From: Blastocatellia bacterium
Lineage (GTDB): Bacteria; Acidobacteriota; Blastocatellia; UBA7656
Length of the DNA stretch: 64,000 nucleotides
Direction: 5' to 3'
NCBI GenBank assembly: GCA_035607285.1
Contig: DATNBZ010000069.1
Coordinates: 10,182 to 74,181, forward strand
Of the stretch, positions 2,991 to 37,900 are shown piece after piece. The first letter of the stretch is position 1. Each line of letters starts with the position of its first letter. Under the pieces are notes generated by a model. The model saw only the letters and a list, made by a program, of their open reading frames with translations, did no database searches and was not told where the DNA came from. The translations under genes were made by a program, and so were the position numbers.

Positions 2991-3560
2991 ATGGCGTCAG
3001 CCTCGAAGCGGAGTGAACCCTACGTTGAGATTGACGTACGGCAAAGCCATCATATAATCAGCCGCAGTTTACGAAACCGGGGGATGACGCTTATCACGAA
3101 AGCTGACTGGAAACTTCATGGGGTTCGCATCGTTCATTCCGAAGACCTCGATGCCAACACTCCTCAAACTCCGGGAATGAATCGAGCCGCGGCGATCACT
3201 CACGCGCGAGCCGGCGCCTCGAAGCTCTGGGCCGGCACTGTAAGCATTCATCCCAACGCAAAGACCGGAGCGCATCATCACGGCGAACTCGAAAGTGTAA
3301 TCTACGTCGTAAAAGGCAAGGCCCGCATGCGGTGGGGCGATCGACTGGAATTCACCGCTGAAGCCGGAGCCGGCGACTTCATCTACGTGCCGCCTTTTGT
3401 TCCTCATCAGGAGATCAACGCCAGCACCGATGAGCCGCTCGAATGCGTGCTCGTGCGAAGCGGGCAGGAACCAATCGTAGTCAATCTCGACATTCCGACC
3501 GTCGAGCCGCCTGAAGAGGTTCGATGGATCGACGATGTGCATCCGAAGGCGCCACAATGA
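2991..3560 (+). CDS. Cupin-domain protein. The start is uncertain; an internal Met at 3084 is possible.
   Basis: Two-His cupin motifs (GAHHHGELESVIYVVKG ... DFIYVPPFVPHQ). Confidence 0.6.
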   Translation: MASASKRSEPYVEIDVRQSHHIISRSLRNRGMTLITKADWKLHGVRIVHSEDLDANTPQTPGMNRAAAITHARAGASKLWAGTVSIHPNAKTGAHHHGELESVIYVVKGKARMRWGDRLEFTAEAGAGDFIYVPPFVPHQEINASTDEPLECVLVRSGQEPIVVNLDIPTVEPPEEVRWIDDVHPKAPQ

Positions 3561-3580
3561 AAGCGCAGTTGACGAAGAGC

Positions 3581-3732
3581 GGGTTCAGGGTTCTGTTTGC
3601 GAGCTTTGCGGTCCTTTGCGAGCTTTGCGCTAAAGGAACCTGAAAATACATTAGCGCAAAGCTCGCCAAGGACCGCAAAGTTCGCCAAGGAGCGCACCCG
3701 TTCGCCAAGGACCGCAAAGCTCGCAGAGAATA
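3581..3732. repeat. Family-A heptamer palindrome (CTTTGCG-type arms), a terminator-like inverted repeat between convergent genes.
   Basis: Arms TGCGAGCTTTGCGGTCCTTTGCGAGCTTTGCGC and GCGCAAAGCTCGCCAAGGACCGCAAAG are reverse-complementary. Confidence 0.7.
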
Positions 3733-4228: not shown

Positions 4229-7200
4229 TTATCTGAAATCACTTATCAGGACTACGTCCGAAGTCTGAGCGCCACGCGCACATGCGAGCCGGCCATCACG
4301 AGACCAGTCCCAGGAAAACATTAGATCAGATTTGAAGTTGGTTAACTGTACCGGTGTGCCGCCCGCCAGCGGCTGGCCCCAAAGGTTTGAGACTCCCTGG
4401 TGAGTGTCGATGTAAGTCAAATACCGTCCGTCAGCAGTCCATCGAAGCTCGCGCCATGCGTTGATGGTCATGGTGTCGAAGACATGAGCCGGTTTCCCAT
4501 CTTCAAAGGAGAGGGCTGCGATGCGCAGTTGCCAGTCCGAACCCGGGGGTATGAAGTTACATGCGATCAGCTTTCCGTCAGGCGAAACGGAAGGCCGTTG
4601 CACCACGTCGTTCGCGCTGGTCACCTGGACCGGGACGCCGCCCTCGATAGGCGTCTTCCACAAAAGATGATTTCCGCCGGACTCCAACTGGAAGATCACC
4701 CACTTACCATCAGCGGAGCAGCTTGGAAACCAGCCTCCGTCAAAGTTCACTTGTGTAGGATTGTTTCCATCCGGGTCGATTCTCCAAATGTCGCTTCTGC
4801 CGGCTCGGTCGGAACCAAAGACGATGTAGCGGCCATCAGGCGAGACAGACGGATTGACGTTAGAGCCGGCGTCTGAAGTCAGTTGTTTTTGAGCAGTCCC
4901 GTCCGGGTTCATTATCCACAAGTCGAGCCGGCCGCTTGCCAGCGAGTGATACACGATCCTGCCGTCGGGCGTCCAACAAACGCCTCCCCCGTTATCCGCT
5001 CGGCCGGCGCCGGTTGGATTGTGCACGAACACACCCGCTCCGTATCTCCCGCCCCCGGACGTAATTTGTTTTGCACGAACGGCATCACCGCCGGGCGCAA
5101 CCCAGATGTTTGACACTTGATCGCTCTGCACGGTAACCAGGGCCTTTGAATCGGCGGTGAGGCTTATGTTGTTATAACCGTTCAGGTCGTTTGTAATCCT
5201 CCGCGCCTCACCGCTCGGATAAGCGAGGTGCCAGATCTGCGGCTGGCTTGAAGCTTTGTCTGACCCGGGAACCAGCAAACCGTTGCCATCCGGCAGCCAG
5301 GCGATTCGTCCGACGTTAAACCATTTCTGAGACTTGATCGGTTTCTCGGCCCCGCCCGATGTGGGAGCTTCTACGATGCTGAAACTGCCGTCCTGGAAGT
5401 TCTGAACGGTGAAAGCGATCACGCGGCCGTCAGGCGACCACGCCGAATCGTAAATGATCTCGGGCGTCCAACGCGAAGTAATCTTTCTTTCGCTGCTTCC
5501 GTCGGAGTTCATGACTAAGAGCAACTTCTCCGAGCGAGGCCCCTCTCCCCGGCCGGGTCTCCATCGAGCGAAAGCGATCTGCTTGCCGTCAGGAGAAAAC
5601 GTGAGACCGCCGTGCACTCTTTCTGTGATCTTCTTTGGGGCGCCGCCCAGCACCGGCATTTGATAAAGCGTGCTGTCCGGGAGACCTTCCTCTTGTTTGA
5701 CGTAGTAGACGTAATTCCCGTCGGGCGAAAAGATCAGCCCGTTGTATTGCGCGCCGCTGGCCGGTGCTATCAACACGCTGCTTGAAGTGGCGACCTGGCG
5801 CATCCAGATGTTCTGACCGGCTGCATCATTCATCACGAACGCCACGTATTTGCCGTCGGGCGATATTGCGGCTTCGGTGACACGGCCGGTCGTGGTGAGC
5901 CTGGCTACATTCATCGTTTGAAACGGCGCGGCGAGCTTATCCTGGCCAACAAATCGGTACAAACCATAGCCCACCGCGCCGATTAGAAGAATCACCGTTA
6001 ACAGCGCAATGGCCGCGCCGGTTTTGTGACGCTTGATTTCACTCAGGATTATCTCGGCGCTTGACGTAGTCCTGGGCGCCGGGCTGCCGGCGGTGTCCAG
6101 TGCAGGCGTTCCGCCGGTTCGAGCCGCAGCTTGCCGGCCCTGGGTACCTGCGCCGCGAGCATCGCCGGCGGTGGAATGCGCTGAAGGCCTGAGCTTTGAT
6201 TCGATCTCCAGTTCCTGCTTGAGGCTGCGCAGGTCGACCATGAAGTCGCGAACGCTTTGGTAGCGTTCCTCTCTGTCCTTCCGCAGGGCCTTGCTGACGA
6301 TTCGCTGAAGCTCAGCCGGAACGCGCTCAACATATCGCTCCAACTGCTCGGGCTCCGTCTTGAGTATCGAAGCGATAACGTCGCTTGTGGTCTCGCCCTG
6401 AAACGGCAGATGGCCCGTGACCATTTCGTAGAGCACCACGCCGAGACTGAAGATGTCTGTCCTCCCATCGACCGGGTGGCCGCGCGCCTGTTCGGGCGAC
6501 ATGTAATAAGCCGTACCGACGATCGTGCCTGGATCGGTCTGCAGCTTCATCACCGTCAGCGCCGTCTCGCTTGCGGGCGTTCGACTCTCCGTAAGCTTGG
6601 CCAGTCCGAAATCCAACACCTTCACGTAACGGTCGGGCCGCAGCATGATGTTTTCCGGTTTTATGTCCCGGTGAACTATCCCGGCGGCGTGCGCTGCCGC
6701 CAGCGCGCTCGAGGCCTGGGCGCATGCGTCGAGCACCTCGACGAGGCTCGAGCTTCGGCGCCGCATCAACGAGCGAAGCGTTTCGCCTTCGACGTATTCG
6801 GTGGCGATGAAGTGGATGCCGTCTATCTCTCCGACATCGAAAATGGTGAGAATGTTTGGATGATTCAATGCTGAAGCCGAGCGCGCCTCCATCTCGAATC
6901 GGCGCAGCCTGTCCGGGTCGCGGGTGTAAAAAGCCGGGAGCAGCTTGAGCGCGACGCGACGACCCAACCGGCGGTCCTGGGCGAGGTAGACTTCGCCCAT
7001 CCCTCCCACTCCGAGCACCTCGGTAATCTTGTAAGCCCCAAGCTCTCTTCCTATAAGAGATTCGCTCTCGCCATTGATCACAAGCTCGGCGGCCGCTTCG
7101 AAGACGGGCGCCTCGATGAAGCTGCCGGCTTTATCGTGAGAGTCGATCAACGCCTCGACTTCGCGGCGCAACGAACGATCTCCCTTGCATGCCTCATCGA

Positions 7201-7304: not shown

Positions 7305-10300
7305 TTATCTGAAGCCGCCAATCAAGACCACATCGCTGGCGATGCTTCCGCGCGCCACAGCCAGTTGTTTGCCGTCACGCGACCAGGCGTGACTAAATAT
7401 TTGATCGGTCCTGAAGTTGGTCAACTGCTTCGGCGCGCCGCCGTCGATCGGATATGACCATATATTAGAAATGCTGTCGCGCAAGTCCGTGTATGTCAGC
7501 GCACGCCCGTCAGGCATCCAGTGAACCACTTGTTCAAGAGGCTGCGGCAGGTCAAAAACCTTTGTACGCTGCCCGCCTTCAACCGTTATAAGGGCGAATC
7601 TCTGACGCTTTGGCGTTGCCTGCTCATCCACGAATCTAAAGACAATCTGTTTTCCATCCGGAGATGGGGCGGGTCTGGCCGAAGAGTAGTCCGTGAGCCG
7701 AATTGGATTGCCGCCATCGATAGAGACCTTCCACAACTGGCTTACGCCCGTTTCGGTGCCTGAGTAAACCACCCATTGACCATCGGGGGTTATCTCCGCG
7801 TTCTGAGCGCTGGCTACGCCGGTCAATTGTTTCGGATTGCTGCCGTCCAGCTCCATTCTCCAAATACAGGAATTGCCTGTGCGATTCGAAGAAAAAACGA
7901 TATAGCGTCCGTCAGGGGAAACCGTTGGTCCAAGGCTCGCACGCTCATCAGCAGTCAATTGTTTCTGGCCTGTCCCATCCTTATTCACGATCCATATGTT
8001 CACGACGCTTCGCGTTCTGCTCGTGTAGATAATTCTGCCGTCAGGGGTCCAACATAAGCCGGACAAACCATCTGAGTTGTTCGATGTAATCTGGGTGGCG
8101 CGGCTTGCATCACCTGCGGGCGCTATCCATATGTTTGAGTTTTGCTGGGTCTGCACTGTGCCCAAAGCATTGGAGTCTGCGGTCAGGCTGATGCCGCCAT
8201 AATCATTCGTGTCATTTGTGATCCTTCGTACCTGGCCGCCGGGATAGGAAACATGCCAGATTTGCTGTGACGGATACGACTCTTTGTCGGAAGCGGCGAC
8301 GATCAAGCCGCTTCCATCCGAAAGCCATGCCAACTGACCGGCCGAACGCCACTGCTGATGGGTGATCTGCTGTTCGGTGTGATCTTTAATCCGGACCGTC
8401 ATCACATTCCAGTGGCTGCCGGAGGCGTCGCCGATTCTTAACGCATAGGCAATCCTCTCCCCATCGGGCGACCAGGATGGGCCCCAGGCTTTCTTTGATG
8501 TGGAATAGATGTCACGCTGGCTATGCGTAACCAGAGCTTGCTCTCCTGTGCCATCAACGTTCGAGGTCGCTACGACTCCTTCGTCGCGCTGCGGATAACC
8601 GCGCATGTAGACTAGTTGTTGGCCGTCGGGAGAAACACTGATGGCTCCATCCACATCCCTGGCCAGCATTTTTACCGAGCCGCCAAGGACCGGCACTCGA
8701 TACATCGCATTCTCGACCGATTCCCACCTTAGAAAGTAAATGTAATTCCCATCCGGAGAGAAGATCAGCGAGTTGTAGTCAACATGATCGGCGGGAACAA
8801 TCTCTGTATCGCTGCCCGTCGCAATATGCCTCAGCCAGAGGCTCTGCTGCCCTTTCCCTCCCAACGCGTGCGCCACATATTTCCCGTCTGGTGAGATCGC
8901 CGCACAACTCGCCTTTCCGGTTGTAGTAAGCCTGGTCAGTTTCATGCTGGCGAAGGACTCGGGCGATTGCGGTGCGATTTGTCGCTGGCTGAATAGCCTT
9001 GCTATTCCCATCCCAACTCCGGTAATCAAAATCGCCACGCCAATGAAAACCAGCGCCGCGCCTTTCTTGTGCCGCTTTATCTCGCTGAGGATGACCTCAG
9101 CGCTCGACGTCGTGAGCGCACCACCGTCTCCCGTCTTCTTCGGTGTTTGGCCGTCAGTATCGATGACCGCTTGCGTTCGAGTAGTCGTCCTGGAATCGTC
9201 GATATCCGGCGCTATGACTTGCGCACGCGCGGCTTGAAACTCGAGCTCCTGTTTTAGCCGCCGGAGATCAACCATCATGTCTCTTGCCGTCTGATAGCGG
9301 TCATCCCTGTCTTTCGTCAGCGCTTTTGTGACGATCCATTGCAGAGCCTCGGGAACATCATTCGAATAGCGCGCCAGCGGCGGCGGCTCCTTCGAAATTA
9401 TCAGGGCAATCAATTCGCCGGCAGTCTTGCCTTCAAACGGCGGGCGCGCCGCGATCATTTCGTAGAGTACCATTCCAAGACTGAAGAGATCGGTCCGCGA
9501 GTCGAGCGGCAACCCGCGGGCTTGCTCGGGCGACATATAATTCACTGTTCCCAGAACCGTACCCGGATCGGTATCGACCCGCGCGATGGTGGCCGCTTGA
9601 GTGTTGTCCGCGGCGCCGTGGCTCTCCGAAAGTTTCGCGAGCCCGAAGTCCAGGACCTTAACGAAACCATCGCGTCGCACCATTATGTTCTCCGGCTTTA
9701 TGTCGCGATGAATTATCCCGGCCTGATGCGCGGCCTCGAGCGCATTCGCCACCTGGATCGTTATCTCGAGAGACTCTTTCACGCTGAGGGTCGCGCTTGA
9801 TAGCCGCCGGCGAATTGTTTCCCCATCGATGTACTCCGTCGCCAGGAAACGGATTGAGTCTGCTTGTCCAATCTCGAAGATCGTGATGATGTTTGGATGA
9901 TTCAAGGCTGACGCGGCGCGCGCCTCTTGTTGAAATCTCCGAAGCCGCTGTTCATCCGCGGTGAAGTAATCCGGCAGGAGTTTCAGCGCCACGTTCCGGC
10001 CGAGACGGCGGTCCTGCGCGAGATAAACGTCACCCATCCCGCCCGCCCCGAGCAGTGCGGTGATCCTGTAAGGCCCAAGCTCTCTTCCGATCAGAATTCC
10101 ACCGTGAGCAGTTGCCAGGAGTTCAGGAGCCTGTGCGAAAACGGGAGACTCGATAAAGCTTCCGGCCTTGTCAGAAGAATCGATCAAGGCCTCTACTTCG
10201 CGGCGCAACGAATGATCTCCCTCGCATGCCTCATCGAGAAAAGCCTCGCGCTCCCGCGGGTCGCGTTCGATCGCGGCTTGAAACACCTTGTCGATTTGCT

Positions 10301-11019: not shown

Positions 11020-11200
11020 GAACAAATGTAGGTCGTCCCTCCTCAGAAACCCTGCCGGTACTTTTTTGCATCAGGCCACGCGTATAAAGAAACTCTGTAA
11101 AGCTGCAATGTTCGTAGTCCGGCCTTCAGGCGGAAGTTCGTAATTCAACGTAAACGCATGAAAGCTCCCCAAACCTACGGTTGTGGTAAGCCCGCGTAGT

Positions 11201-14145: not shown

Positions 14146-14265
14146 CTTAACGCAAGGACGCAAAGTCGCAAAGCCGCAAAGCCGCGATAGGAAGAAGAAA
14201 AAAGACTTTGCGTCCTTGCGTCCTTGCGGCTTTGCGTTAAAGAGATCTGCTTGCGGCTTTGCGTT
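14146..14265. repeat. Family-A-related palindrome (CGCAAAG/CTTTGCG units), terminator-like between convergent genes.
   Basis: CGCAAGGACGCAAAGTCGCAAAGCCGCAAAGCCGCG is reverse-complementary to CTTTGCGTCCTTGCGTCCTTGCGGCTTTGCG. Confidence 0.7.
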
Positions 14266-15163
14266 AAGGCGACTCGGCTGAGCTGATCATCGTGCCCGCG
14301 CCTTCGTCGGTGAAGACTTCGTGCAGAAGCGCGTTGCGCCTGGAACCGTTGATGATGTGCGCGCTGCGAACGCCTCGGCGAATAAGGTGGGCGATTGCGG
14401 CTATCTTCGGAAGCATGCCCGCGGATACGACTCGGTCTCGCACCAGGCGGTCAGCTTCCTCGGCAGTCAGTTTTGAGATTCTTGAAGAAGGGTCATCGCG
14501 ATCGCGCAGGATCCCGTCGACGTCGGTAAGCAAAATCAGTTTTTCAGCCTGTAGTTTGACGGCGATCTCCGCCGCGATCGTATCCGCGTTGATGTTGTAG
14601 ATGTTACCTTGCTCATCCGCGCCGAGCGAAGAGATCACCGGCACGTAGCCGTTCTCGAGCAATAATCGGAGCAGGCTCACGTTGATCTCGACGATGTCCC
14701 CCACGTGACCAAAATCAATCGTCTCGACTTCACCGGTCTCCTGGTTCATCACGTTTTGAATTTCGCGCCGCCGGGCGTGAATGATGTTCCCATCGATTCC
14801 CGACAGCCCGACCGTTTCGCATCCCGAGCGGCGCAACGCGGACACGATGTCCAGGTTGATCTGTCCCGCGAACACCATCTTTGCGACTTCGAGGGTCTCG
14901 GTGTTGGTGACTCGCCGCCCGTTGACGATTCGTTGTTCGATGCCCAGCCGTTCGGCGATGGTCGTGAGCTGTTTACCTCCACCGTGAATGACGGCGATGT
15001 GAATGCCGACCTGTTGAAGCAAGGTGATCTCTTCGGCAAGCGAGTTGAGTTGCTCCTGGTCCTCGGTGACTTTGCCGGAGAGCTTTACTACAAAGGTCTT
15101 GTTCTTGAAACGCTGTATGTAAGGAAGCGCTTCTCGTAGTAGATCGAGTCGTTCGTTAATCAT
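14264..15163 (-). CDS. argB: Acetylglutamate kinase
   Basis: 299-aa amino-acid kinase fold (VVKLSGKV, HGGG, GG at the C-terminus), sitting within arg gene context. Confidence 0.9.
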   Translation of the reverse strand: MINERLDLLREALPYIQRFKNKTFVVKLSGKVTEDQEQLNSLAEEITLLQQVGIHIAVIHGGGKQLTTIAERLGIEQRIVNGRRVTNTETLEVAKMVFAGQINLDIVSALRRSGCETVGLSGIDGNIIHARRREIQNVMNQETGEVETIDFGHVGDIVEINVSLLRLLLENGYVPVISSLGADEQGNIYNINADTIAAEIAVKLQAEKLILLTDVDGILRDRDDPSSRISKLTAEEADRLVRDRVVSAGMLPKIAAIAHLIRRGVRSAHIINGSRRNALLHEVFTDEGAGTMISSAESP

Positions 15164-15171
15164 TGAATGCT

Positions 15172-15312
15172 CGGTTCAAGGTTCAGGGTTCAGTCTTCTT
15201 TGCATGCTTTGCGGTCCTTTGCGTCTTTGCGTTGAGAATTTTCCGCGCCGTTGAGAATTCTCGGTGGTTCTCAACGCAAAGACGCAAAGGACCGCAAAGC
15301 ACGCAAATAAGA
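15172..15312. repeat. Family-A palindrome in the argF-argB intergenic gap.
   Basis: TTTGCGGTCCTTTGCGTCTTTGCGTTGAGAAT is reverse-complementary to ATTCTCAACGCAAAGACGCAAAGGACCGCAAAG. Confidence 0.8.
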
Positions 15313-15316
15313 AGAA

Positions 15317-16324
15317 CTAAATCATTGAAGCCAGCACCGCCTTCTGCACGTGCAAGCGATTCTCAGCCTCATCAATTGCCGCGTTTTGCGGACCATCCAA
15401 CACCCCATCCGTCACGACGACGTTCCGGCGCACGGGCAGGCAATGCATGAACCAGCCCTTGTCCGTCGCTCGCATGATCTCTTCGTCCACGCGCCAGTGT
15501 TTGTACTCCTGTCTGAGCTGTATGTCGGCTTCCACGCGCCCGTAAAACTGCTTCGCGCCCCAGCTTTTTGCGTAGACGATCCGCGCCCCTCGACAAGCGT
15601 CTCGCTGATCGCGAGAGACTCGAACGACACCGCCGCTTGAACTCGCTCCCGCCTGGATCTCGGCAATGGTTTCATCGCCGAGATCATATTCCGGCGGACA
15701 CGCAATCGTCAGATCGAGCCCCATCTGCGCCGCGACCAAAGCAAATGAATTCGGCACAGCCATCGGCAACGGCTTGGGATGATAAGCCCACGACAGAACT
15801 ACTTTCTGATGTGAGAATGCTCCGAGCTTCTCCCTGATAGTCATAGCGTCGGCCAACGCTTGAAAAGGATGGTGCCTGGAGGATTCGAGATTAAAGACCG
15901 GCGCGTCGCTGTGTTCTGCAAAGCCTCGAACGACGCTATCATTCATCTCCTCTTCGTAGTTCTTCATTTCGGGAAACGCTCGCACGCCGATCGCCGCAAC
16001 GTAGCGCGACAGCACACGGGCGGCTTCCTTGATGTGCTCGGTTTTGTCGCCATCCATCACGACGTTCTCGCGATGCTCCAGACTCCAGGTACCTTTGCCG
16101 ACATCGAGCGTGACCGGGTTGCCGCCGAGATCGAAGACCGCGATCTCCATCGAGGCTCGCGTTCGAAGCGAAGGATTGAAAAACACCAGCGCGACGCTCT
16201 TGCCTTGAAGCGGCCGCTCTCGATAATCGCCGGCTTTGATCTTCGTCGCGAGATCGATCAACGCCGTCAATTCGTCCGCCGTGAAGTCCGCGGTACTGAG
16301 AAAATCTCTTCCTCTCATGTTCAT
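15317..16324 (-). CDS. argF: Ornithine carbamoyltransferase-family enzyme (ATCase/OTCase fold). It has a divergent carbamoyl-phosphate motif SLRTR instead of STRTR, so it may be an N-acyl-ornithine transcarbamylase type.
   Basis: 335 aa with FNPSLRTR near the N-terminus and HCLP near the C-terminus, typical of the OTCase/ATCase family, in arg context. Confidence 0.8.
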   Translation of the reverse strand: MNMRGRDFLSTADFTADELTALIDLATKIKAGDYRERPLQGKSVALVFFNPSLRTRASMEIAVFDLGGNPVTLDVGKGTWSLEHRENVVMDGDKTEHIKEAARVLSRYVAAIGVRAFPEMKNYEEEMNDSVVRGFAEHSDAPVFNLESSRHHPFQALADAMTIREKLGAFSHQKVVLSWAYHPKPLPMAVPNSFALVAAQMGLDLTIACPPEYDLGDETIAEIQAGASSSGGVVRVSRDQRDACRGARIVYAKSWGAKQFYGRVEADIQLRQEYKHWRVDEEIMRATDKGWFMHCLPVRRNVVVTDGVLDGPQNAAIDEAENRLHVQKAVLASMI

Positions 16325-16337
16325 TTGGGGTTTGACT

Positions 16338-16434
16338 CTCTTTTGCGTTCTTTGCGGTCCTTTGCGTCTTTGCGTTGAGAATTCTCAACCAGGAATTCCT
16401 AACGCAAAGACGCAAAGGACCGCAAAGAACGCTA
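16338..16434. repeat. Family-A palindrome in the argD-argF intergenic gap.
   Basis: Same arms as at 15172-15312. Confidence 0.8.
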
Positions 16435-16444
16435 AGAAGCAACC

Positions 16445-17626
16445 TTATCCGAGAGCGATCCCGCTCAGCTCATCCAAAAACAAATCAATCTCTGCTCGCT
16501 TGAGCGTGAGCGGCGGCAACAGCCTCAGAACACTCGGATCATCCGAGAGCCCGGTGATGATCTTCCGATCGAGCAGCCCCTGCTGCACGGGCTTTGCGCT
16601 CCCGCCCGCGAACTTTATTCCGACCAGGTAGCCGAGCCCTCGCACTTCCTCAACCAGCAACATCTTTCTCAGCTTTCGAAACAGGTACTCGGAATTCTCG
16701 CGAACGTTCTCGAGCAGCCCTTCATCCCGAATAACATCAACCGTAGCCTCGAGCGCCGCGCACGCCAGAGGTCCTCCGCCAAAAGTGGTTCCCAGATCGC
16801 CCGTCTTTATCTCACCGGCAATCGCGTCGGTCATCAGCAGGGCGCCCATCGGCACTCCGCTGGCGATGCCTTTCGCGAGCGCGGCCATATCCGGCACGAC
16901 GCCCAGTTGCCCCGCGAAAAAGAACTCGCCGGTCCGCCCCATCCCCGTTTGCACTTCGTCGTAGATCAGCATCGCGTTAGCTTCATCACACCGCTCACGC
17001 AATGTTTGGTAGAACTCCGGCTCGGCCATTCGCACGCCGCCCATCGATTGAATCGGTTCGAGGATGACGGCCGCCGTTTCTTCATCAAGCAATGAGCTCA
17101 CGGAGTCAATGCTCCCGAACTCGGCGTACACGTGGCCCTCGAGAAGCGGCGAGACGTTCTCGCGATACTTGGCCAGCCCGGTGGCGGAAACCGATCCCGG
17201 GGTTCGCCCGTGAAACCCGCCTTCAAACGAAATGATCTTCTTCCGGCCGGTCAGCATCCGAGCGATCTTCATCGCGTTCTCATTAGCTTCGGTTCCCGAG
17301 TTGACGAAGAACGCTTTCGAAAGATCCGGCGGCGCAATCTCGACCAGCTTTTTGGCGGCTCGAGCGCGTGCGTCGTTGTAGACGAGATTCGAATAGAAGA
17401 TCAATCGCGAGGCTTGATCAGTGATGGCCTTAACGATGCGAGGATGCGAATGTCCGGTCGACACAACGGCATGCCCGCCGTAGAGATCGAGATATCGCTC
17501 ACCCTCTGACGTGTAGACCCAAACGTCTTCGCCACGTTCTATTACGAAAGGAAACTTCTTATAAGTCGCGACCTGGTATTGCTCTTCGATGTCGATCAGG
17601 TTTTCGAGTGTTGGTTGTGTAGTCAA
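16445..17626 (-). CDS. argD: Acetylornithine aminotransferase (class III PLP aminotransferase).
   Basis: 393-aa class-III aminotransferase pattern (GGHAVVSTGHSHP ... DEVQTGMGRTG), in arg context. Confidence 0.9.
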   Translation of the reverse strand: MTTQPTLENLIDIEEQYQVATYKKFPFVIERGEDVWVYTSEGERYLDLYGGHAVVSTGHSHPRIVKAITDQASRLIFYSNLVYNDARARAAKKLVEIAPPDLSKAFFVNSGTEANENAMKIARMLTGRKKIISFEGGFHGRTPGSVSATGLAKYRENVSPLLEGHVYAEFGSIDSVSSLLDEETAAVILEPIQSMGGVRMAEPEFYQTLRERCDEANAMLIYDEVQTGMGRTGEFFFAGQLGVVPDMAALAKGIASGVPMGALLMTDAIAGEIKTGDLGTTFGGGPLACAALEATVDVIRDEGLLENVRENSEYLFRKLRKMLLVEEVRGLGYLVGIKFAGGSAKPVQQGLLDRKIITGLSDDPSVLRLLPPLTLKRAEIDLFLDELSGIALG

Positions 17627-17648
17627 CTCTATGTTACTCCGAAAAAGA

Positions 17649-17733
17649 GTTCGTAGTTCGGCCTTCAGGCGGAAGTTGGTATGTGAGTGGTCCGGAAAGC
17701 GTTACGAACTTCCGCCTGAAGGCCGAACTACCA
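17649..17733. repeat. Family-C palindrome (GTTCGTAGTTCGGCCTTCAGGCGGAAGTT and its reverse complement).
   Basis: Read directly. Related copies are at 11110-11143 and 34481-34569. Confidence 0.75.
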
Positions 17734-17819
17734 ACACCGACCATGGCGAATGAACACGCATCCTAACAACTACCATCTTCATAGCACGCCATAGTATTAT
17801 CGAATCGCCGGAGGCATCT

Positions 17820-18119
17820 ATGACAACCTCTCTGAAGGATCCGCTTCATACGCCCGGCAATATGCCGGCGTCTTTGCGTCGCGACGGCGCTATCAACCTT
17901 GAGGTTAAACAAGGTGTCATCATCTTACGAGCCTCGAAAGGTGTCCAGGATCGCATTGAATCATTGTTAAACAAACAGCAAACCGCAAAGCTGACTCGTT
18001 CCGAAAAAAGAGAATTACAACAGTACGAACAAATCGACGACTATTTGAGTTTGTTGAATCGTCTCAGCCGCAATCTGGCGCAGTCTCAACAGGCCCAAGA
18101 GGCAGCCGGTGCCCCATAA
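17820..18119 (+). CDS. Small hypothetical protein, partner of the downstream HNH endonuclease. The coding sequence is low-GC.
   Basis: 99 aa. It overlaps the start of the HNH ORF by 11 nt and has visibly lower GC than its neighbours. Confidence 0.5.
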   Translation: MTTSLKDPLHTPGNMPASLRRDGAINLEVKQGVIILRASKGVQDRIESLLNKQQTAKLTRSEKRELQQYEQIDDYLSLLNRLSRNLAQSQQAQEAAGAP

Positions 18120-18555
18120 GCTCTCCGCCTCTGTTCAATCGCAAGTTCGTCAGCGCGCCAGCTTTCTGTGTGAGTATTGCCACACCGATGAAACGTGGCA
18201 GTACGTTCTCTTCTCGATAGATCATATCGTTCCAGTCTCCGAGGGCGGCGAAGACCATCTCGAAAACCTGGCCCTGGCCTGCTTCCACTGCAACCGCCAC
18301 AAATCGAACAAGCAGATAGCATTCGATCGAGAGACAGGGCAAACGCTTCCTTTGTTCAATCCGCGCAAACATCGCTGGCCAGACCACTTCATCTGGTCAC
18401 GCAACGGTCTGCTAATGGTCCCTCTAAGCGCGATTGGACGAGCGACCATTGATTTGCTCGAACTCAATCGAGAACGCATTCAACAAATCCGCGCGGCTGA
18501 TGTAAGCATAGGTCGTCATCCCCCTTTTGACGACCCGGTTCAACCAATAGGATGA
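18109..18555 (+). CDS. HNH endonuclease
   Basis: CEYCHTDETW...DHIVPVSEGGEDHLENLALACFHCNRHK is a classical HNH (His-Me finger) motif with two CxxC pairs. Confidence 0.8.
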   Translation: MPHKLSASVQSQVRQRASFLCEYCHTDETWQYVLFSIDHIVPVSEGGEDHLENLALACFHCNRHKSNKQIAFDRETGQTLPLFNPRKHRWPDHFIWSRNGLLMVPLSAIGRATIDLLELNRERIQQIRAADVSIGRHPPFDDPVQPIG

Positions 18556-18606
18556 GCGTAGCGATGCTGCGATCGGTTGACTACCCATATATCGATCGCG
18601 ATCACG

Positions 18607-19071
18607 TCAACTCTTAACAATGTCAGACCATCGCTCTGCCCGCTCCTCTTCCATCGTCTCTTCGACACGAGAGGAGATCGTCCACACGTGCCCGGAAGGA
18701 TCCATAATTCTTCCGGTGCGATCGCCCCAGAACTGGTTCTTCACCGGTAGCAGGATCGTAGCTCCGGCGGCAACTGCGCGCTCTACCGTTTTGTCGACAT
18801 CCTCAACGTAGACGAACATAACCACCGGCGAGCTGGCGTCCTGCTGCGGCGCGCGGCTCGCAAGCGTGGGCCACTCGGCTTCGATGATGATCATCTCCCC
18901 GCTGATCGTCAGCAACGCATGAGCGACGTTCCCATCGGGCCCTGGTCTGCGCCCCACCTCTACCGCCCCAAATGTAGTTTTGCAGAAGTCGATCTCTGCC
19001 GAGACGTCGCGGCATACCAGCATTGGAATCACCGCCGAGGAGTTGTCCGGTATCGGTTTCACGTTGGTCAT
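18607..19071 (-). CDS. VOC/glyoxalase-family (PhnB-like) protein. The likely true start is at the internal Met preceded by GAGGAGG.
   Basis: A glyoxalase-like fold is inferred from the sequence pattern. A ribosome-binding site precedes MTNVKP. The longer ORF-track version begins 34 codons upstream with no ribosome-binding site. Confidence 0.5.
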   Translation of the reverse strand: MTNVKPIPDNSSAVIPMLVCRDVSAEIDFCKTTFGAVEVGRRPGPDGNVAHALLTISGEMIIIEAEWPTLASRAPQQDASSPVVMFVYVEDVDKTVERAVAAGATILLPVKNQFWGDRTGRIMDPSGHVWTISSRVEETMEEERAERWSDIVKS

Positions 19072-19227
19072 GATCGTTACCTCCTCTGAAGTGCTGGTAC
19101 TGAGCGGGCGAGTCAGATTAACCGCTGATTTGCGCTGACTGGCGTAACGTTGATGTTCGCAGATCGGCGGCAATCAGCGAACCGAAGGCAGTCAAGATCA
19201 GCGGTGAATCATCCGCCGCTAACAAGG

Positions 19228-20259
19228 CTACGGATTGCTACCCGGAAACACTAATCCTTCGCGCTCCTCGAACCCAAACATCAAATTCATATTCTGAACT
19301 GCTTGACCCGCGGCGCCCTTTACCAGATTGTCGAGCGCGACGAACACGATCACCGTGTCGCCGCTCGCCGCCCATCCTATGTCTACAAAGTTTGTATTCT
19401 TCACCCAGTTGATGTCAGGCGAGCCCTCAACCAACCTGATAAAAAACTCAGTGCCGTAGAACTCTCGAAAGACGTTGCCGACTTCGTCGCGTGTCATCCG
19501 CCTCGCCAGAGTGACGTAGATCGAGGCAAAGATTCCTCGCACGACCGGGATCGAGTGAACCTGGAACACCAATGAACTCTCAGATGACCACTTCGAGTTG
19601 ACTGAAGCAAGCAACTGTTCGACTTCGGGTTGGTGCTGGTGCTCGAACATCTTGTAAGCGTAGAAGCTGTTCGCGCGTTTCGGATGATGCGTGTTGACCG
19701 CCGGCTTCGCTCCCGAGCCCGACGATCCGGTCTTCATGTCCGCGATGACCTTGCCTTTCACAAGGCCGGACGCGACTAACGGAAATAGTCCCAACTCGAG
19801 CGCGCTCGCGAAGCAGCCGGGATTAGCGATGTGCGTCGCTTCTTTGATCTGATTGCGATTCACCTCGGTCAAGCCGTATACAAATTCGCGCTGCGCTTCC
19901 ATCGCCGAGTGTTCGCGTCCGTAGAACTTCTTGAACGCATCGGCGTCGTTCAATCTGAAATCGCCCGAGAGGTCTATCACTTTCACCGAGCGAGGCGCCG
20001 AAGGGACGATGCCCATCGCCTGGCCGTGAGGCAGAGCAAGAAAAACACAGTCGAGGCTTTCGAGCGTGCTCGGGTCAGGCATTGATTCAAATTTGAGATC
20101 GGTAAGTTTCGCAAGATTCGGATGAACAGAATCGACTCGCTTGCCGGCGTGCTCGTTGGCGGTGACTAGCACGAGCTCGACTTGCGAATGAAACAGCAGA
20201 ATGCGAAGCAGTTCGCTTCCGCCGTAACCTGAGCCACCGAGTATGCCTGCTTTGATCAA
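19228..20259 (-). CDS. argC: N-acetyl-gamma-glutamyl-phosphate reductase (TTG start).
   Basis: 343 aa with GILGGSGYGG NAD-binding N-terminus and a semialdehyde-dehydrogenase catalytic region with Cys (NPGCFA). Confidence 0.9.
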   Translation of the reverse strand: MIKAGILGGSGYGGSELLRILLFHSQVELVLVTANEHAGKRVDSVHPNLAKLTDLKFESMPDPSTLESLDCVFLALPHGQAMGIVPSAPRSVKVIDLSGDFRLNDADAFKKFYGREHSAMEAQREFVYGLTEVNRNQIKEATHIANPGCFASALELGLFPLVASGLVKGKVIADMKTGSSGSGAKPAVNTHHPKRANSFYAYKMFEHQHQPEVEQLLASVNSKWSSESSLVFQVHSIPVVRGIFASIYVTLARRMTRDEVGNVFREFYGTEFFIRLVEGSPDINWVKNTNFVDIGWAASGDTVIVFVALDNLVKGAAGQAVQNMNLMFGFEEREGLVFPGSNP

Positions 20260-20275
20260 TCGTTTTTCCCTTTGT

Positions 20276-20384
20276 ACTTTTGCGTGCTTTGCGGTCCTTT
20301 GCGTCTTTGCGTTGAGAATTCAGGAATACTCAACGCAAAGACGCAAAGTACCGCAAAGCACGCAAAGCGGACACGCAAAGCCTG
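20276..20384. repeat. Family-A palindrome between the unknown arg-cluster gene and argC.
   Basis: TTTGCGGTCCTTTGCGTCTTTGCGTTGAGAATTCAGGAATACTCAACGCAAAGACGCAAAG. Confidence 0.8.
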
Positions 20385-20391
20385 CAAACAG

Positions 20392-21498
20392 CTAAGCGGA
20401 GAGATTAAGCCAGGCCGCTACCTTCGCTTGAATCAAGCTGCCAAGCTGCTCGCCACCGTTCACCGCATTCGCCGCATCAAGCCCAAGTTCGCGCTTTACA
20501 TAGTCGATGCCCATCTGCGAATCGGACACCGGGCCGGAGACCACGTCGATCTTTACACCTTGACCGGCCAGCAATTCACGCCCGCCCCACGCGCCCACGA
20601 AGTCGTTGGCGCAGAACACCAGTGCGGCCGCAGCTTTCATCAACTCTCTGTCTTCGAAGATCGTATTCACTCCGTACCCGCCGAGTATTCCATCGCCCAA
20701 CTCGATCACTATGCAGTCGGGTTGCATCTCCGACAGCTTCGAGATAATGCCTTTCGCGATCGGCGCGAGATCCTCGACACCCACCGTAGAGGGCAGCCCG
20801 CAATCGAGAAAGCTCAGCGTCTTGATCGCGCCGTGATCCTGCATATTAAGAGTATCGCGCAGGCAGGCCACTCCCGCGAGCTTTGCGCCCGCCACGCGAT
20901 GACCCGCGCGTGTAAGGTGTTTGATGATTTCCGTCGCGGCGTACGTCTTTCCCGAGTTCATGCAAGTGCCCGCGACCAGCACAAGCGGAGTCGCGCCGTC
21001 GAGTGTCTCTCGAGGCGCCACCGCGCCTTCGGCTATGTTCAGTATCCGGCCGTCGACGACCGGCATACCGAGCACTTCGACTTCAATGGCATTGCTGAGA
21101 CTATGATGATGCCCGACGCATTTTCCGATGAGTCCGCCAAGGTTAAGCAGGTGCAATCGGTCTTTTGAATTGACGGCTTCCGGCACGTCACCCACAAACC
21201 CTTTGAGCGCCCGGCGATAACCGAGCACGCCGGCGATCACGTCGCCAGGATTTATTTTGGCCATGCGTCCGGTCACCAGCTCGAGCGTGTTGTAGGTCGC
21301 GTTATCGGTGAGGGTGCGCACGACTACTACGTTGCCGGCTCGCGCCTCACAGTTAGTGGTTATCTCGATCTCATGATTGAGATTGAGATTCACCGTTGAC
21401 GAGGCGATCTTGTCAACGCGCACAAGGTGCAGCTCGGAAGCGGGCTGTTCCACGATCGGCGAAATTGGTTCGGCAAAAGTTTGCATCATGACTTCCAT
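20392..21498 (-). CDS. Conserved hypothetical protein embedded in the arg operon (between argG and argC). It has a deviant P-loop-like motif and may belong to the DUF1611/COG3367 type; this is unverified.
   Basis: 368-aa ORF with AGTCMNSGKT, no match to canonical arg enzymes, and tight spacing to argG (16 nt). Confidence 0.5.
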   Translation of the reverse strand: MEVMMQTFAEPISPIVEQPASELHLVRVDKIASSTVNLNLNHEIEITTNCEARAGNVVVVRTLTDNATYNTLELVTGRMAKINPGDVIAGVLGYRRALKGFVGDVPEAVNSKDRLHLLNLGGLIGKCVGHHHSLSNAIEVEVLGMPVVDGRILNIAEGAVAPRETLDGATPLVLVAGTCMNSGKTYAATEIIKHLTRAGHRVAGAKLAGVACLRDTLNMQDHGAIKTLSFLDCGLPSTVGVEDLAPIAKGIISKLSEMQPDCIVIELGDGILGGYGVNTIFEDRELMKAAAALVFCANDFVGAWGGRELLAGQGVKIDVVSGPVSDSQMGIDYVKRELGLDAANAVNGGEQLGSLIQAKVAAWLNLSA

Positions 21499-21514: not shown

Positions 21515-22741
21515 TCAATCCTCGTTTCTTTTCTCTTCGGCCATCTTTCGCATTCTCAAACGCAACGCGTTGAGTTTTATGAAGCCTTCCGCGTCGCGCT
21601 GGTTGTACACCGTGTCATACTCGAACGTAGCGAACTCCTCCGAATACAACGAACAAGGTGAGCGACGGCCCACCACCATGCAATTTCCCTTGTAGAGCTT
21701 CAGCCGCGCAGTGCCGTTGACGTTCTTCTGACTCTGGTCTATCAAGGCGCGAATAGCTTCAAACTCCGGCGTATACCAAAAGCCGTAATAGATCATCTCG
21801 GCCACTCGCGCGTTGAGCGAGTCCTTCAAGTGCGCAACCTCGCGATCCAACGTGAGCGATTCGACTGCGCGATGCGCGGAGTGAAGGATGGTCACACCCG
21901 GCGTCTCATACACGCCTCGCGATTTCATTCCCACAAACCGATTCTCGACAAGATCTACTCGCCCGATTCCATGCTCTCCTCCGATTTGATTCAGGCGATC
22001 GAGAAGCGAAGCGGGCGAAAGCGTCTCGCCGTCTACGGCGACCGGTACTCCCGATTCGAATTCAATTTCGACATAAGCCGGCTTATCGGGCGCGTCTTCC
22101 GGCGCTCGAGTGAGAATGAAGATCTCTTTTGGCGGCTCGGCCCAAGGGTCTTCCAGAATCCCACCCTCGTAACTTATGTGCATCAGATTGCGATCCATCG
22201 AGTAAGGCTTTTCTTTCGTCGCGGTGATCGGAATCTTGTGCTGCTCGGCATAGGCGATCAGGTCGGAGCGCGACTTGAACGGCCACTCACGCCACGGAGC
22301 GATCACCCGAATGTGCGGATCGAGCGCGTAGTAAGTCAGCTCGAACCGAACCTGATCGTTTCCCTTCCCGGTCGCCCCATGCGAAACCGCGCGCGCGCCT
22401 TCCTTGTGCGCGATCTCGATATGCTTCTTCGCGATCAGCGGCCGCGCGAGCGATGTTCCCATTAGATAAACGCCTTCATACACCGCGTTGGCTTTGAGGG
22501 CGGTGAAAACAAAATCGCGCACGAACTCTTCACGCAGGTCCTCGACGTAGAGCTTTGAGGCGCCTGTAGCGAAAGCCTTTTCTTCCAGCCCGCCGAGTTC
22601 TTCCGCTTGCCCGACGTCCGCCGCAAAGCAAATCACTTCGCAGTTGTAAGTCTCCTTCAACCACCTGAGAATGACCGAGGTATCGAGCCCTCCGGAATAG
22701 GCGAGCACGACCTTATCTATCTTTTCCGATCCAGTTTCCAT
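21515..22741 (-). CDS. argG: Argininosuccinate synthase
   Basis: 408 aa with [11 protein letters not shown]-loop motif and conserved ArgG body. Confidence 0.95.
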
Positions 22742-22772: not shown

Positions 22773-23258
22773 TCAGCGCGGCCAAAGAATAGCAGTCCGC
22801 GAGTTGAGCGCGGGCTTGTTCTTTGCGCCCGAACGCGCCGCGGCGAACAGACCAACAATCTTCTTGATCGCCAGACGCTGAGCGGCGCCGTTTTTGACTG
22901 CGACAAGAATCGTATCGTCGCCGGCAACAGTGCCGACAATTTCGGCGATCGCAGCCCGGTCGATTGTTAGCGCCGCCGGTTGGGCGAGGCCCACTTCGGT
23001 GCGGACGACGATAAGGTTGTCGCCCGCGGTGTCGATGGAGGTCAACGGCCCGCCAGCTTTCACCGCGGCTTCCGGCGCTACGTAATAGCCGCCAACCTTC
23101 GTCAGCCCCAGCTTGACTATATCGCGCGAAACGCTCGACTGAGTCGCGGCAAATCCGCGCTTCGAGAGGTGCGCCGCGAGCTCCTGCTGGGTAGCTACGG
23201 GCTTGGCGCTGACAATATCGAGGATCTTCTGATGACGGGCTTTTGACATTTTATGCAC
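22773..23258 (-). CDS. argR: Arginine repressor
   Basis: 161 aa with an N-terminal winged-helix (QQELAAHLSKRGFAATQSSVSRDI) and a C-terminal oligomerisation/arginine-binding region (GDDTILV). Confidence 0.85.
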   Translation of the reverse strand: MHKMSKARHQKILDIVSAKPVATQQELAAHLSKRGFAATQSSVSRDIVKLGLTKVGGYYVAPEAAVKAGGPLTSIDTAGDNLIVVRTEVGLAQPAALTIDRAAIAEIVGTVAGDDTILVAVKNGAAQRLAIKKIVGLFAAARSGAKNKPALNSRTAILWPR

Positions 23259-23335: not shown

Positions 23336-23466
23336 ATTTGCGTGCTTGCGGGTCCTTGGCGTGCTTTGCGGTCCTTTGCGTGCTTGCGGGTCCTTGGCGT
23401 GCTTTGCGGTCCTTTGCGTCTTTGCGTTGAGTATTATTTCTCGCAAAGGGCCGCAAAGCACGCCAG
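23336..23466. repeat. Family-A repeat cluster (tandem GCGTGCTTGCGGGTCCTTGGCGTGCTTTGCGGTCCTTTGCG units plus an inverted arm).
   Basis: Read directly. Confidence 0.75.
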
Positions 23467-34480: not shown

Positions 34481-34569
34481 AGACTGTGTGAAAGTTTGTA
34501 GTTCGGCCTTCAGGCGGAAGTTTGTAGCTTGCATCGACGCTGAATTAGGAACCTTTCACACAGTCTCAG
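34481..34569. repeat. Family-C palindrome with outer arms GAGACTGTGTGAAAG and CTTTCACACAGTCTC.
   Basis: Read directly. Confidence 0.75.
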
Positions 34570-36772: not shown

Positions 36773-37900
36773 ATGGGCGATCAAAGGCACCTCCAGATGA
36801 TCCAAAGTAGCGTCGACGAGTGGAATCAATGGCGAAAGGACGCCCCCTTAGTACGCCCCGACCTCAGTGGTGTAAATCTCAAAGACGCTGATCTAAGAGG
36901 GATCAATTTACGGTATGCAGACTTAGTTTCTGCGCGCCTTGATGGGGCAGACTTAACTGGGGCAAACTTGATGTATAGTCACTTGACCAACACACATTTT
37001 GAGCGCGCCGAACTCGTGAGATCGATGTTTTTTGGAGCAGTCGGGGGAGAGCCACAGTTCCTCGAGTCTAATCTAAGCTATGCGAAAATGACTGGGGCCC
37101 ATCTTGGTGCGACCAATATGGAGAACGCTTTGCTCGAAGGTGCAGACCTCGGGGATACGGATTTCACTTACTCCCAGTTTGATAAGGCGAATCTCACTTC
37201 CGCAGACCTTCGCGGTACAAATCTCTCCAAAGCAAGTTTGTTAGACGCAAATCTTGATCGGGCATTGCTAAGCGGAACTGTTTTTGGTGACACTTCCCTT
37301 TTGGGTACTAGGAATTTGGAGACCTGTGTGCACTATGACCTGAGCATCATTGATGTGCAGACTCTTGCAAGGTCCGGGAGACTCCCTCTCGGTTTCTTAC
37401 GTGGCTGTGGTCTGCCCGAACACTTTATCGACTATTTACCATCGCTCCTGCGTGAAGCAATTCAGTTCTACTCCTGTTTCATAAGCTACTCAACCAATGA
37501 CCAGCCTTTTGTGGAGCGCCTCTATGCAGATCTTCAAAGCAAAGGCGTACGATGCTGGTTTGCCCCCGAGGACTTAAAGATCGGGGATAAGTTTCGACAG
37601 CGGATCGACGAATCAATTCGGCTTCACGATAAGCTATTGCTGGTTCTTTCTGAGAAGTCTATAGCCAGCCCGTGGGTGGAGGATGAGGTGGAAGCCGCAC
37701 TGGAGAGAGAGCGTCGCGAGCGAAAATCGGTTCTATTCCCTATCAGCATCGATGAATCAGTATCGAAGAGTGAGATAGCCTGGGCGGCATCGCTCCGTAG
37801 GGCGCGACATATCGGTGATTTTAAGGATTGGAAAAGTCATGACGCGTACCAAAAGGCGTTTGAGCGTTTGCTACGGGATCTCAAAGCCGAAATCCAGTAA
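36773..37900 (+). CDS. Pentapeptide-repeat protein fused to a C-terminal TIR domain.
   Basis: N-terminal A(D/N)LxG pentapeptide repeats (DLSGVNLKDADLRGINLRYADLVSARLDGADLTGANL...). C-terminal FISYSTNDQPFVERLYADLQSKGVRCWFAPEDLKIGDKFRQRIDESIRLHDKLLLVLSEKSIASPWVEDEVEAALE is a TIR pattern. GC is markedly lower than the flanks. Confidence 0.75.
   Translation: MGDQRHLQMIQSSVDEWNQWRKDAPLVRPDLSGVNLKDADLRGINLRYADLVSARLDGADLTGANLMYSHLTNTHFERAELVRSMFFGAVGGEPQFLESNLSYAKMTGAHLGATNMENALLEGADLGDTDFTYSQFDKANLTSADLRGTNLSKASLLDANLDRALLSGTVFGDTSLLGTRNLETCVHYDLSIIDVQTLARSGRLPLGFLRGCGLPEHFIDYLPSLLREAIQFYSCFISYSTNDQPFVERLYADLQSKGVRCWFAPEDLKIGDKFRQRIDESIRLHDKLLLVLSEKSIASPWVEDEVEAALERERRERKSVLFPISIDESVSKSEIAWAASLRRARHIGDFKDWKSHDAYQKAFERLLRDLKAEIQ

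Follow-up and report, generated by a model that had tools for sequence, protein, structure and literature searches.

The stretch of DNA analysed here, 64,000 nucleotides of contig DATNBZ010000069.1 (assembly GCA_035607285.1) from a Blastocatellia bacterium of the phylum Acidobacteriota, is referred to below as the window. Among the arginine genes that it carries on the minus strand lie two small, overlapping plus-strand genes, the upstream one encoding a 99-amino-acid protein (ORF99) and the downstream one a 148-amino-acid HNH nuclease. Comparison of sequences suggests, with a probability that may be put at about 0.5, that the conserved unit formed by this pair (17767-18567) is a two-gene module of toxin-antitoxin or addiction type that is complete in itself and moves horizontally. 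Both reading frames were found where the initial annotation had placed them, opposite to the minus-strand arg genes, with the open reading frame (ORF) listing and Pfam in agreement. The unit comprises the following features.

17767-18567, plus strand: conserved mobile unit of about 800 bp (promoter-like region, ORF99 and HNH gene), delimited by pairwise blastn
17767-17819, plus strand: promoter-like 5' region, CAACTACCATCT ... ATAGTATTATC, followed by GGAGG and ATG
17820-18119, plus strand: ORF99, 99 aa, ATG start with GGAGG before it; proposed regulator or neutraliser of the HNH nuclease
18109-18555, plus strand: HNH nuclease gene, 148 aa, GTG start; proposed effector or toxin

The limits of the unit are given by pairwise blastn of seven copies located at the arg site. 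In all 21 comparisons similarity begins 30-65 nt (mostly 52-56 nt) before the ORF99 ATG, and it mostly stops 0-30 nt past the HNH stop codon, with three pairs continuing into shared flanks; otherwise the flanks differ between genomes. The upstream 55 nt contain a promoter-like motif, which the alignment gives as CAACTATCATCT ... TGTAGTATTATC ... GGAGG ... ATG. The -10-like box of the TGTAGTATTATC type, situated about 25 nt before GGAGG-ATG, is kept in all arg-located copies and in three copies from other sites (L009, L014 and L101); it lies upstream of the first gene only and may act as a promoter. The two genes overlap by 11 nt, the GTG of the HNH gene falling within the 3' end of ORF99. A consensus promoter/terminator scan yielded nothing informative and detected no terminator after the HNH gene.

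The 148-amino-acid protein matches the Pfam family HNH (PF01844) over residues 21-68 (E=1.7e-14; score 54 bits, cut-off 21.4), and the positions invariant in 53 homologues (C21/C24, D38-H39, N53, C58/C61, H60 and N62) are all present in it. With these zinc-binding and catalytic residues kept, the protein is predicted to be a bona fide, intact HNH nuclease. Its homologues, of 148-152 aa, form at least 1230 clusters, and records from Chloroflexi are found in the paired HNH family as well. The AlphaFold 2 (AF2) model is of moderate quality (pLDDT 68.5, catalytic core below 50), and Foldseek searches of the ORF99 and HNH models against the PDB returned no match at E<=0.001; no fold was assigned.

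The closest HNH protein in the protein collection is 85% identical, and the exact HNH sequence of the window was not retrieved from that collection, although its ORF99 has been called. Similarly, the NCBI record behind L001 contains an intact but uncalled HNH ORF (8290-8733) beside a called ORF99. The HNH gene seems to be systematically missed, or taken for a pseudogene, by some annotation pipelines. The apparent absence of HNH from L015/L016 and L001 was traced to such a difference in gene calling, the DNA being 100% and 99.9% identical, respectively, to loci in which the gene has been called.

In the defence library PADLOC, whose profiles come without a curated cut-off, the best matches of the HNH protein were PtuB subfamilies (E=2e-12 to 1e-8), the top one aligning residues 10-131 and hence extending past the HNH core. 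This likeness to PtuB of Septu and type I-A retrons (Ec78/Ec83; TIGR02646), which is likewise a small HNH protein of similar size, raises the possibility that the pair serves anti-phage defence of the Septu or retron-effector kind, with a PtuB-like HNH set off by infection and with ORF99 in place of the PtuA ATPase as sensor or regulator. The same is hinted at by weak matches in NCBIfam (retron Ec78 PtuB and TIGR02646), by the fusion of the ORF99 domain to a CAP12/Pycsar TIR effector in one relative and by a pentapeptide-TIR gene elsewhere in the window. However, the NCBIfam scores are far under their cut-offs (19.3 versus 150 bits for PtuB and 14.5 versus 52.15 for TIGR02646), and a sequence-profile search of the PDB with the HNH protein recovered generic HNH cores only (Cas9, IscB and 4h9d), with no PtuB structure retrieved. 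Unlike Septu and the retrons, the pair has no PtuA ATPase, reverse transcriptase or multicopy single-stranded DNA (msDNA), its partner being an unrelated 99-aa protein encoded upstream. In none of the loci examined does a PtuA-like ATPase, a reverse transcriptase or another defence gene adjoin the pair, which lies among housekeeping genes and not in defence islands. A Septu-like reading of locus L191 was discarded, as the adjacent ATPase there is RecF-like. A defence role of this kind is therefore considered distinctly doubtful.

ORF99 itself is 100% identical to protein P0121 (NCBI VN937_06585, from a Blastocatellia metagenome-assembled genome). Its family comprises at least 1751 clusters when grouped at 90% identity and 326 when grouped at 50%, and it ranges over Acidobacteria, Cyanobacteria (including Nostoc/Anabaena and Synechocystis plasmids) and one genome with planctomycete-like neighbours; members from different phyla are about 50% identical, and 15 positions are invariant. 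No match to ORF99 was found in Pfam, NCBIfam, PADLOC or the PDB, and its relatives are named just 'hypothetical protein' or carry spurious names. The AF2 model (mean pLDDT 64) consists of a beta-hairpin (25-38) and two helices (40-55 and 60-96). A role as a DNA mimic was considered and dropped because of an inconsistent charge signature (isoelectric point 9.5 in the window versus a family median of 4.8). Relatives of ORF99 were also lacking among IMG/VR viral contigs and GenBank phages, and a phage origin of the cassette was rejected on this ground. Full-text literature searches returned no published description of the ORF99-HNH pair or of the ORF99 family. An unverified lead is provided by asr0855-alr0856 of Anabaena sp. 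PCC 7120 (a small ORF and an HNH gene), which is de-repressed 7-9 fold in a trcR mutant (TrcR regulon, PMC10272220).

The association between the two genes is close. An HNH homologue lies directly downstream of ORF99 in 64 of the 67 ORF99-anchored metagenome loci with enough room, the gap in full-length copies among these 64 pairs being -16 to +61 nt. When the search is anchored on HNH instead, a partner is found upstream in 12 of 13 loci, and in three of three look-ups (the locus with planctomycete-like neighbours, Leptolyngbyaceae and Pyrinomonadaceae) the upstream gene is an ORF99 homologue of 49-52% identity. Full-length HNH homologues also occur on 34 plasmid records, every one cyanobacterial. 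A small upstream gene is present at nine of the ten cyanobacterial plasmid HNH loci inspected; the ORF99 profile recognises eight of these genes at E=4e-9 to 4.5e-8 and that of L203 weakly (E=0.0033), and hhalign gave a probability of 91-93% for both plasmid partners that were compared with ORF99. Some plasmid copies adjoin ParA/ParB genes, a typical site of addiction modules, and ORF99 orphans are found on two cyanobacterial plasmids.

The pair had been likened initially to a small-protein plus HNH module of other phyla, and homologous pairs were indeed found to move as a unit through unrelated contexts, of which the family has at least 40. More distant pairs (ORF99 57-71% identical) occupy neighbourhoods such as the following.

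L009: pair between COQ7-like and FG-GAP genes
L011: pair between a TPR gene and lepA
L014 (8001-8706) and L101 (3642-4459): antisense pairs in or beside CO-dehydrogenase/xanthine-dehydrogenase-type clusters (FAD_binding_5, Ald_Xan_dh_C)
L097: pair in a 9.5-Mb genome with planctomycete-like neighbours
L098: pair in a Leptolyngbyaceae cyanobacterium

The element may repeatedly enter metabolic operons in antisense orientation. At L165 an ORF99 orphan without HNH (5261-5960, minus strand) is followed on the opposite strand by genes resembling, by eye, an XRE-type HTH antitoxin and a RelE/HigB-like toxin, and an apparent integrase fragment lies upstream of the orphan; this locus suggests a small island of addiction modules.

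The ORF99 domain is also found joined to other domains. At L187 the genes of a GAF sensor histidine kinase, of a protein combining a receiver (REC) domain with ORF99 and of the HNH nuclease follow one another in this order and all overlap on one strand, and at L191 a DUF433-ORF99 fusion lies directly upstream of HNH. Fusions with DUF2188 occur as well, one protein has a CAP12/Pycsar-type TIR effector domain attached to an N-terminal portion of ORF99, and in P0292 the ORF99 domain follows an N-terminal segment that is AbrB-like by eye, Pfam finding no family in this protein. DUF433 is known mainly from toxin-antitoxin-type gene pairs. The REC, DUF433 and TIR fusions suggest that the ORF99 domain acts as a regulatory adaptor on toxic effectors and is open to signalling input.

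The downstream gene decays while the upstream one persists. In L006-L008, loci that are otherwise 99.6% identical to L005, a clean 491-bp deletion removes HNH from codon ~28 on, with an identical ORF99 left intact. In L104 and L106, the closest relatives of the window copy (ORF99 89% identical), the HNH gene is frameshifted. In the metagenome sample, HNH beside a detectable ORF99 is frameshifted in three loci (L116, L145 and L182), truncated in five and absent in three.

Among known systems, the module would come closest in action to type II toxin-antitoxin or addiction cassettes, its toxin being a DNase. It shares with these systems two small, co-directional, overlapping genes with the small one upstream and a single promoter-like box, a patchy, mobile distribution on chromosomes and plasmids (including sites beside par genes), the decay of the downstream gene with persistence of the upstream one, and the fusion of the upstream domain to DUF433. 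It differs in that the toxin would be an HNH DNase, a pairing for which literature searches found no type II family, and in the upstream protein, in which no known antitoxin fold or DNA-binding domain was recognised and which is, in our judgement, far more conserved than typical antitoxins. An HNH DNase adjoined by a small cognate protein (85-100 aa) is also found in colicins E7 and E9 with their immunity (Im) proteins. In colicins, however, the immunity gene lies downstream of the toxin gene, the toxin forms a single domain within a large secreted protein, and the Im proteins fold as four-helix bundles, to which ORF99 has no similarity in sequence or fold.

The toxin-antitoxin reading is based on the pairing, the overlapping layout, the asymmetric decay, the fusions, the neighbouring par genes, the mobility and the purifying selection on both genes described below. 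Several observations weigh against it. The decay was sampled from loci anchored on ORF99, so that loss of ORF99 was not counted symmetrically. The plasmid HNH gene of Rippkaea PCC 8801 has an IS4 transposase at the position of the partner, and an unpartnered HNH can accordingly persist unless this copy is inactive. Family, profile and fold searches recognised neither an antitoxin fold nor a DNA-binding domain in ORF99 alone (the DUF433, AbrB-like and REC segments being carried by its relatives), and we judge the protein to be unusually conserved for an antitoxin. The pair is not a recognised PADLOC system. Finally, the low synonymous divergence and the patchy presence at one site, which are detailed below, suit a homing element at least as well.

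The surroundings of the cassette in the window consist of the arginine genes and a VOC/glyoxalase gene.

14264-15163, minus strand: argB (Pfam)
15317-16324, minus strand: argF-like gene (Pfam)
16445-17626, minus strand: argD (Pfam)
17627-19227, no strand: inserted interval from the argD start codon to the argC stop codon; the homologous spacer measures 18-130 bp in about 15 relatives
18607-19173, minus strand: VOC/glyoxalase gene (Pfam Glyoxalase, E=1.4e-11), separate cargo at the argC/argD junction
19228-20259, minus strand: argC (Pfam)
20392-21498, minus strand: gene X, 368 aa, no Pfam family
21515-22741, minus strand: argG (Pfam)
22773-23258, minus strand: argR (Pfam)

Neighbourhoods of argD from species-representative genomes, in which the arg genes were mapped by tblastn, include numerous empty sites. 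In L019, L021, L023, L024, L027-L036 and the outgroup L039, argC and argD are separated by a spacer of 18-130 bp without ORF99 or HNH, and the contiguous order in empty-site genomes is argR-argG-(X)-argC-argD-argF-argB. Four further relatives have spacers of 172-571 bp without the cassette, and inspection by eye of the translated 465-bp spacer of L037 points to a PhnB/VOC-like ORF. At the arg site the cassette occurs only in the window, L001/L018, L002, L003, L005 and L104-L109. In a neighbour-joining tree of ArgC and ArgD these carriers are interspersed with empty-site genomes, the carrier L018 being sister to the non-carrier L037.

The empty sites in about 15 related Blastocatellia genomes bear out the proposal of the initial annotation that a foreign cassette was inserted antisense into a once contiguous arg operon. 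The operon is split as described in that argR-argG-X-argC are parted from argD-argF-argB by 1.6 kb, but the VOC gene, which had been counted with the former group, was not a member of the ancestral operon. It is missing from empty-site relatives, and the copy in L104 is 82% identical. Different genomes carry different cargo at the junction: VOC is present in the window and in L104, which also holds a 378-aa gene and an RHH gene, a 179-aa gene is present in L001, and DUF4180 and HTH_37 genes in L005. These differences indicate that the argC/argD junction is a cargo hotspot and that VOC lay outside the ancestral operon. Transcription of the cassette would be expected to converge on VOC/argC.

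The age of the cassette was approached through synonymous (dS) and nonsynonymous (dN) divergence, calculated by the Nei-Gojobori method between arg-located copies. Between the window and L104, dS is 0.13 for ORF99 and 0.21 for HNH, as against 0.83-1.31 for argB, argF, argD, argC, X, argG and argR and 0.78 for VOC. The corresponding values between the window and L001 are 0.34 and 0.57, with 0.97-1.80 for the flanking genes, and those between L107 and L108 are 0.09 and 0.25, with 0.65 for argC. Within the same genome pairs, cassette dS (0.09-0.57) is 3-6 times lower than that of the arg genes (0.65-1.8), whereas dN is alike for both (0.03-0.12); only comparisons with L005 approach the host dS (0.64-0.95). 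The dN/dS ratio of roughly 0.1-0.4 for ORF99 and HNH corresponds to purifying selection. Since the tract of low divergence ends at the unit boundaries, the low dS points to a unit that entered the arg locus horizontally or replaced an allele already present there, strong constraint on synonymous sites being a less plausible cause. The insertion had been regarded as recent, which does not hold for its presence at the locus, shared by lineages with an arg dS of about 1, but does hold for the cassette itself, which is younger than those lineages.

Such dynamics are also what a free-standing homing-type element would be expected to produce, in which HNH would cut a conserved sequence of cassette-less alleles at or near the argD 5' end and repair from an allele bearing the cassette would copy the unit in. 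One homologous site is found in intact (the window, L001, L005), degenerate (L104, L006-8) and empty (L019, L037 and others) states, the cassette is younger than its hosts, with a dS 3-6 times lower and sharp boundaries, and duplicated target sequence (argD 5', argC or Uma2 fragments) flanks some copies. Like the HNH and GIY-YIG homing genes, including those of phage 'intronless homing', the cassette contains a small nuclease gene, has its own promoter-like box and lies between conserved genes, with presence/absence polymorphism at a fixed site and degenerate copies. It differs in being free-standing in bacterial chromosomes and plasmids, outside any intron, intein or phage, in having an obligate partner and many contexts, and in showing no co-conversion of the flanks.

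The duplications themselves are variable. In L001-L003, L104/L105 and L107 the cassette stands between imperfect direct repeats (129-202 bp, 81-87% identical). These repeats are copies of the argD start region, and the fragment downstream of HNH encodes ArgD residues 1 to ~42-76 with a TTG start.

L001, 8793-8947: argD 5' fragment beside the HNH 3' end
L104, 8740-8964: argD 5' fragment beside the HNH 3' end
L107, 4731-4885: argD 5' fragment beside the HNH 3' end

In L005 an argC fragment is present instead (residues 272-306; 8768-8872). In L098 the pair lies within a Uma2 gene, dividing it, between the two copies of a 141-bp duplication, 88.7% identical (3548-3688 and 4451-4591); L099 and L100, from separate assemblies with identical HNH, share this gene order. 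The window copy has no flanking repeats, the distance from the HNH stop to the VOC stop being 51 bp. Flanking direct repeats were rejected as a universal insertion signature, being present in only a few of about 45 contexts. A tree of the duplicated argD 5' fragments, bearing on one versus several insertions, was too short to resolve at 125 nt. In L017 and L020, the closest species representatives (ArgD 90% identical), contigs end exactly at the argD 5' end (codons ~15-17), as would be expected from a duplicated argD 5' segment around a cassette. It may be hypothesized that a circle carrying the cassette and a homeologous target segment is integrated and excised in the Campbell manner, which would also explain why empty sites are clean and why one site is used again.

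Homing is nevertheless at odds with the wider distribution of the pair: its contexts (at least 40, and unrelated) mostly lack a flanking duplication, and it is common on plasmids beside partition genes and absent from phage and viral collections. Free-standing homing endonuclease genes are usually phage-borne. Moreover, no co-conversion tract reaches the arg genes, and the obligate, conserved partner and the wiring to a sensor kinase (L187) are atypical; to our knowledge, homing endonucleases normally need neither an obligate, equally conserved partner nor sensor kinase input. If the element were of this kind, ORF99 would be a helper, a specificity factor or a self-protection factor. Of the three functions initially suggested (a homing-type element, a toxin/immunity-like pair or a defence-related nuclease), the evidence favours a regulated nuclease resembling a toxin-antitoxin pair, with homing as the main, live albeit improbable, rival.

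A broader proposal, put forward tentatively and regarded as unlikely, is that ORF99-HNH represents a class of selfish element not recognised before, chromosomal and site-directed, which spreads from one related bacterium to another into one specific housekeeping locus, here the argD 5' end. Each insertion would duplicate 130-200 bp of target, later allowing precise excision and re-insertion by homologous recombination, and ORF99 would be a new domain for gating nucleases, in wide use and able to be coupled to two-component signalling.

The composition of the cassette sets it apart from its surroundings. ORF99 has a GC content of 0.493 and a GC content at third codon positions (GC3) of 0.52, and the HNH gene has values of 0.532 and 0.557, compared with 0.572±0.022 and 0.661±0.038 for the window genes of at least 200 aa (n=38). 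The GC range of 48-52% given initially was about right. The z-scores for GC3 are -3.7 (ORF99) and -2.8 (HNH), which by our own estimate amount to roughly 2-2.5 standard deviations once the sampling noise of short genes is allowed for; the VOC gene is host-like (GC3 0.688). In every host checked, GC3 was equal to or lower than that of the flanking genes (by 0-0.24 for ORF99 and 0.06-0.23 for HNH), so that low GC3 is a trait of the family and not evidence of a recent insertion in the window. Another clearly low-GC window gene (36773-37900, plus strand; GC 0.50, GC3 0.53) encodes a pentapeptide-repeat and TIR-domain protein (TIR_2, E=1e-26) and may be another foreign or defence-type gene.

A cassette of host-like composition shared by all relatives would have indicated, as the initial annotation pointed out, an ancient resident gene; the presence observed is patchy and the GC3 lower. 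The pair could still be conceived as a resident cellular one that serves housekeeping or regulation, perhaps as a stress-gated DNA-processing nuclease, inherited vertically and placed in the arg operon by coincidence. The purifying selection on both genes, the strong conservation of the partner and the two-component sensor kinase wiring in one relative are what such a role would entail. It is hardly compatible, though, with empty sites and patchy presence among close relatives, repeated natural loss of HNH, unrelated contexts and plasmid location, codon composition that is atypical wherever checked, and dS far below that of host genes, and vertical residence is regarded as very improbable.

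Under the preferred toxin-antitoxin reading, the promoter-like box of the cassette would drive a bicistronic transcript whose two genes are translationally coupled via the 11-nt overlap. The downstream product would be a zinc-finger HNH DNase acting as effector or toxin, and ORF99, as its obligate cognate partner, would most likely bind the nuclease and restrain or gate its activity. Loss or inactivation of the partner, whether through loss of the locus, stress or infection, would then free the nuclease, and in the REC-fused relatives release could occur by sensor-kinase phosphorylation; the module would serve either addiction or abortive defence. It presumably arrived at the argC/argD cargo hotspot in one Blastocatellia subclade, a small group of soil Acidobacteria, and would have been subject to later horizontal exchange or re-introduction, with the nuclease gene now decaying in some populations. 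The anatomy and the evolutionary dynamics of the cassette are well supported; its function is what we infer from them.

Two further kinds of features are found in the arg region of the window. A palindromic hairpin lies between argD and the cassette, outside the conserved unit.

17649-17735, no strand: palindromic hairpin, a repeat element with 33-nt arms (94% complementary) and a 21-nt loop

The segment 17627-17819 folds with -74 kcal/mol (z=-6.8), and the hairpin is followed by a T-run on the minus strand, 5-22 nt upstream of the argD start. Relatives of the hairpin occur in the window (11109-11143 and 34493-34522) and in L002 (7212-7308), while the hairpin itself is absent from the other arg-located cassettes. 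A second family of palindromes (~90-120 bp, near-perfect, with heptamers of the CGCAAAG/CTTTGCG type) fills most arg intergenic gaps.

14146-14272: CGCAAAG/CTTTGCG palindrome, downstream of argB
15186-15312: CGCAAAG/CTTTGCG palindrome, argB/argF
16329-16439: CGCAAAG/CTTTGCG palindrome, argF/argD
20266-20372: CGCAAAG/CTTTGCG palindrome, argC/X
23336-23465: CGCAAAG/CTTTGCG palindrome, upstream of argR

These look like repetitive extragenic palindromic (REP) or miniature inverted-repeat transposable element (MITE) sequences, and large palindromes between arg genes are evidently tolerated. An Rfam scan of the 10-kb region returned only sub-threshold microRNA-like hits on the palindromes, which are explained by their being long hairpins.

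Gene X sits between argG and argC in every Blastocatellia arg operon examined and is missing from the Pyrinomonadaceae outgroup L039. Its product shows only weak P-loop similarities of the BioD/MobB/CobB type at residues ~160-231, and it may be an uncharacterised component of the arginine pathway.

The ORF99-HNH cassette is an uncharacterised, widespread nuclease-partner module, in which members of a large partner family without a name of its own nearly always accompany an HNH nuclease of one subfamily. The splitting of the arginine operon and the expected convergent transcription raise the physiological question of how argD-argF-argB are expressed in cassette-bearing strains. The intact, decaying and empty alleles at a single arg site make the choice between addiction and homing directly testable and offer a case study in element dynamics. 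If ORF99 does act as a brake on the nuclease, the pair would constitute a new toxin-antitoxin or defence family with a DNase toxin, and ORF99 would be a new regulatory domain found in receiver, DUF433 and TIR contexts.

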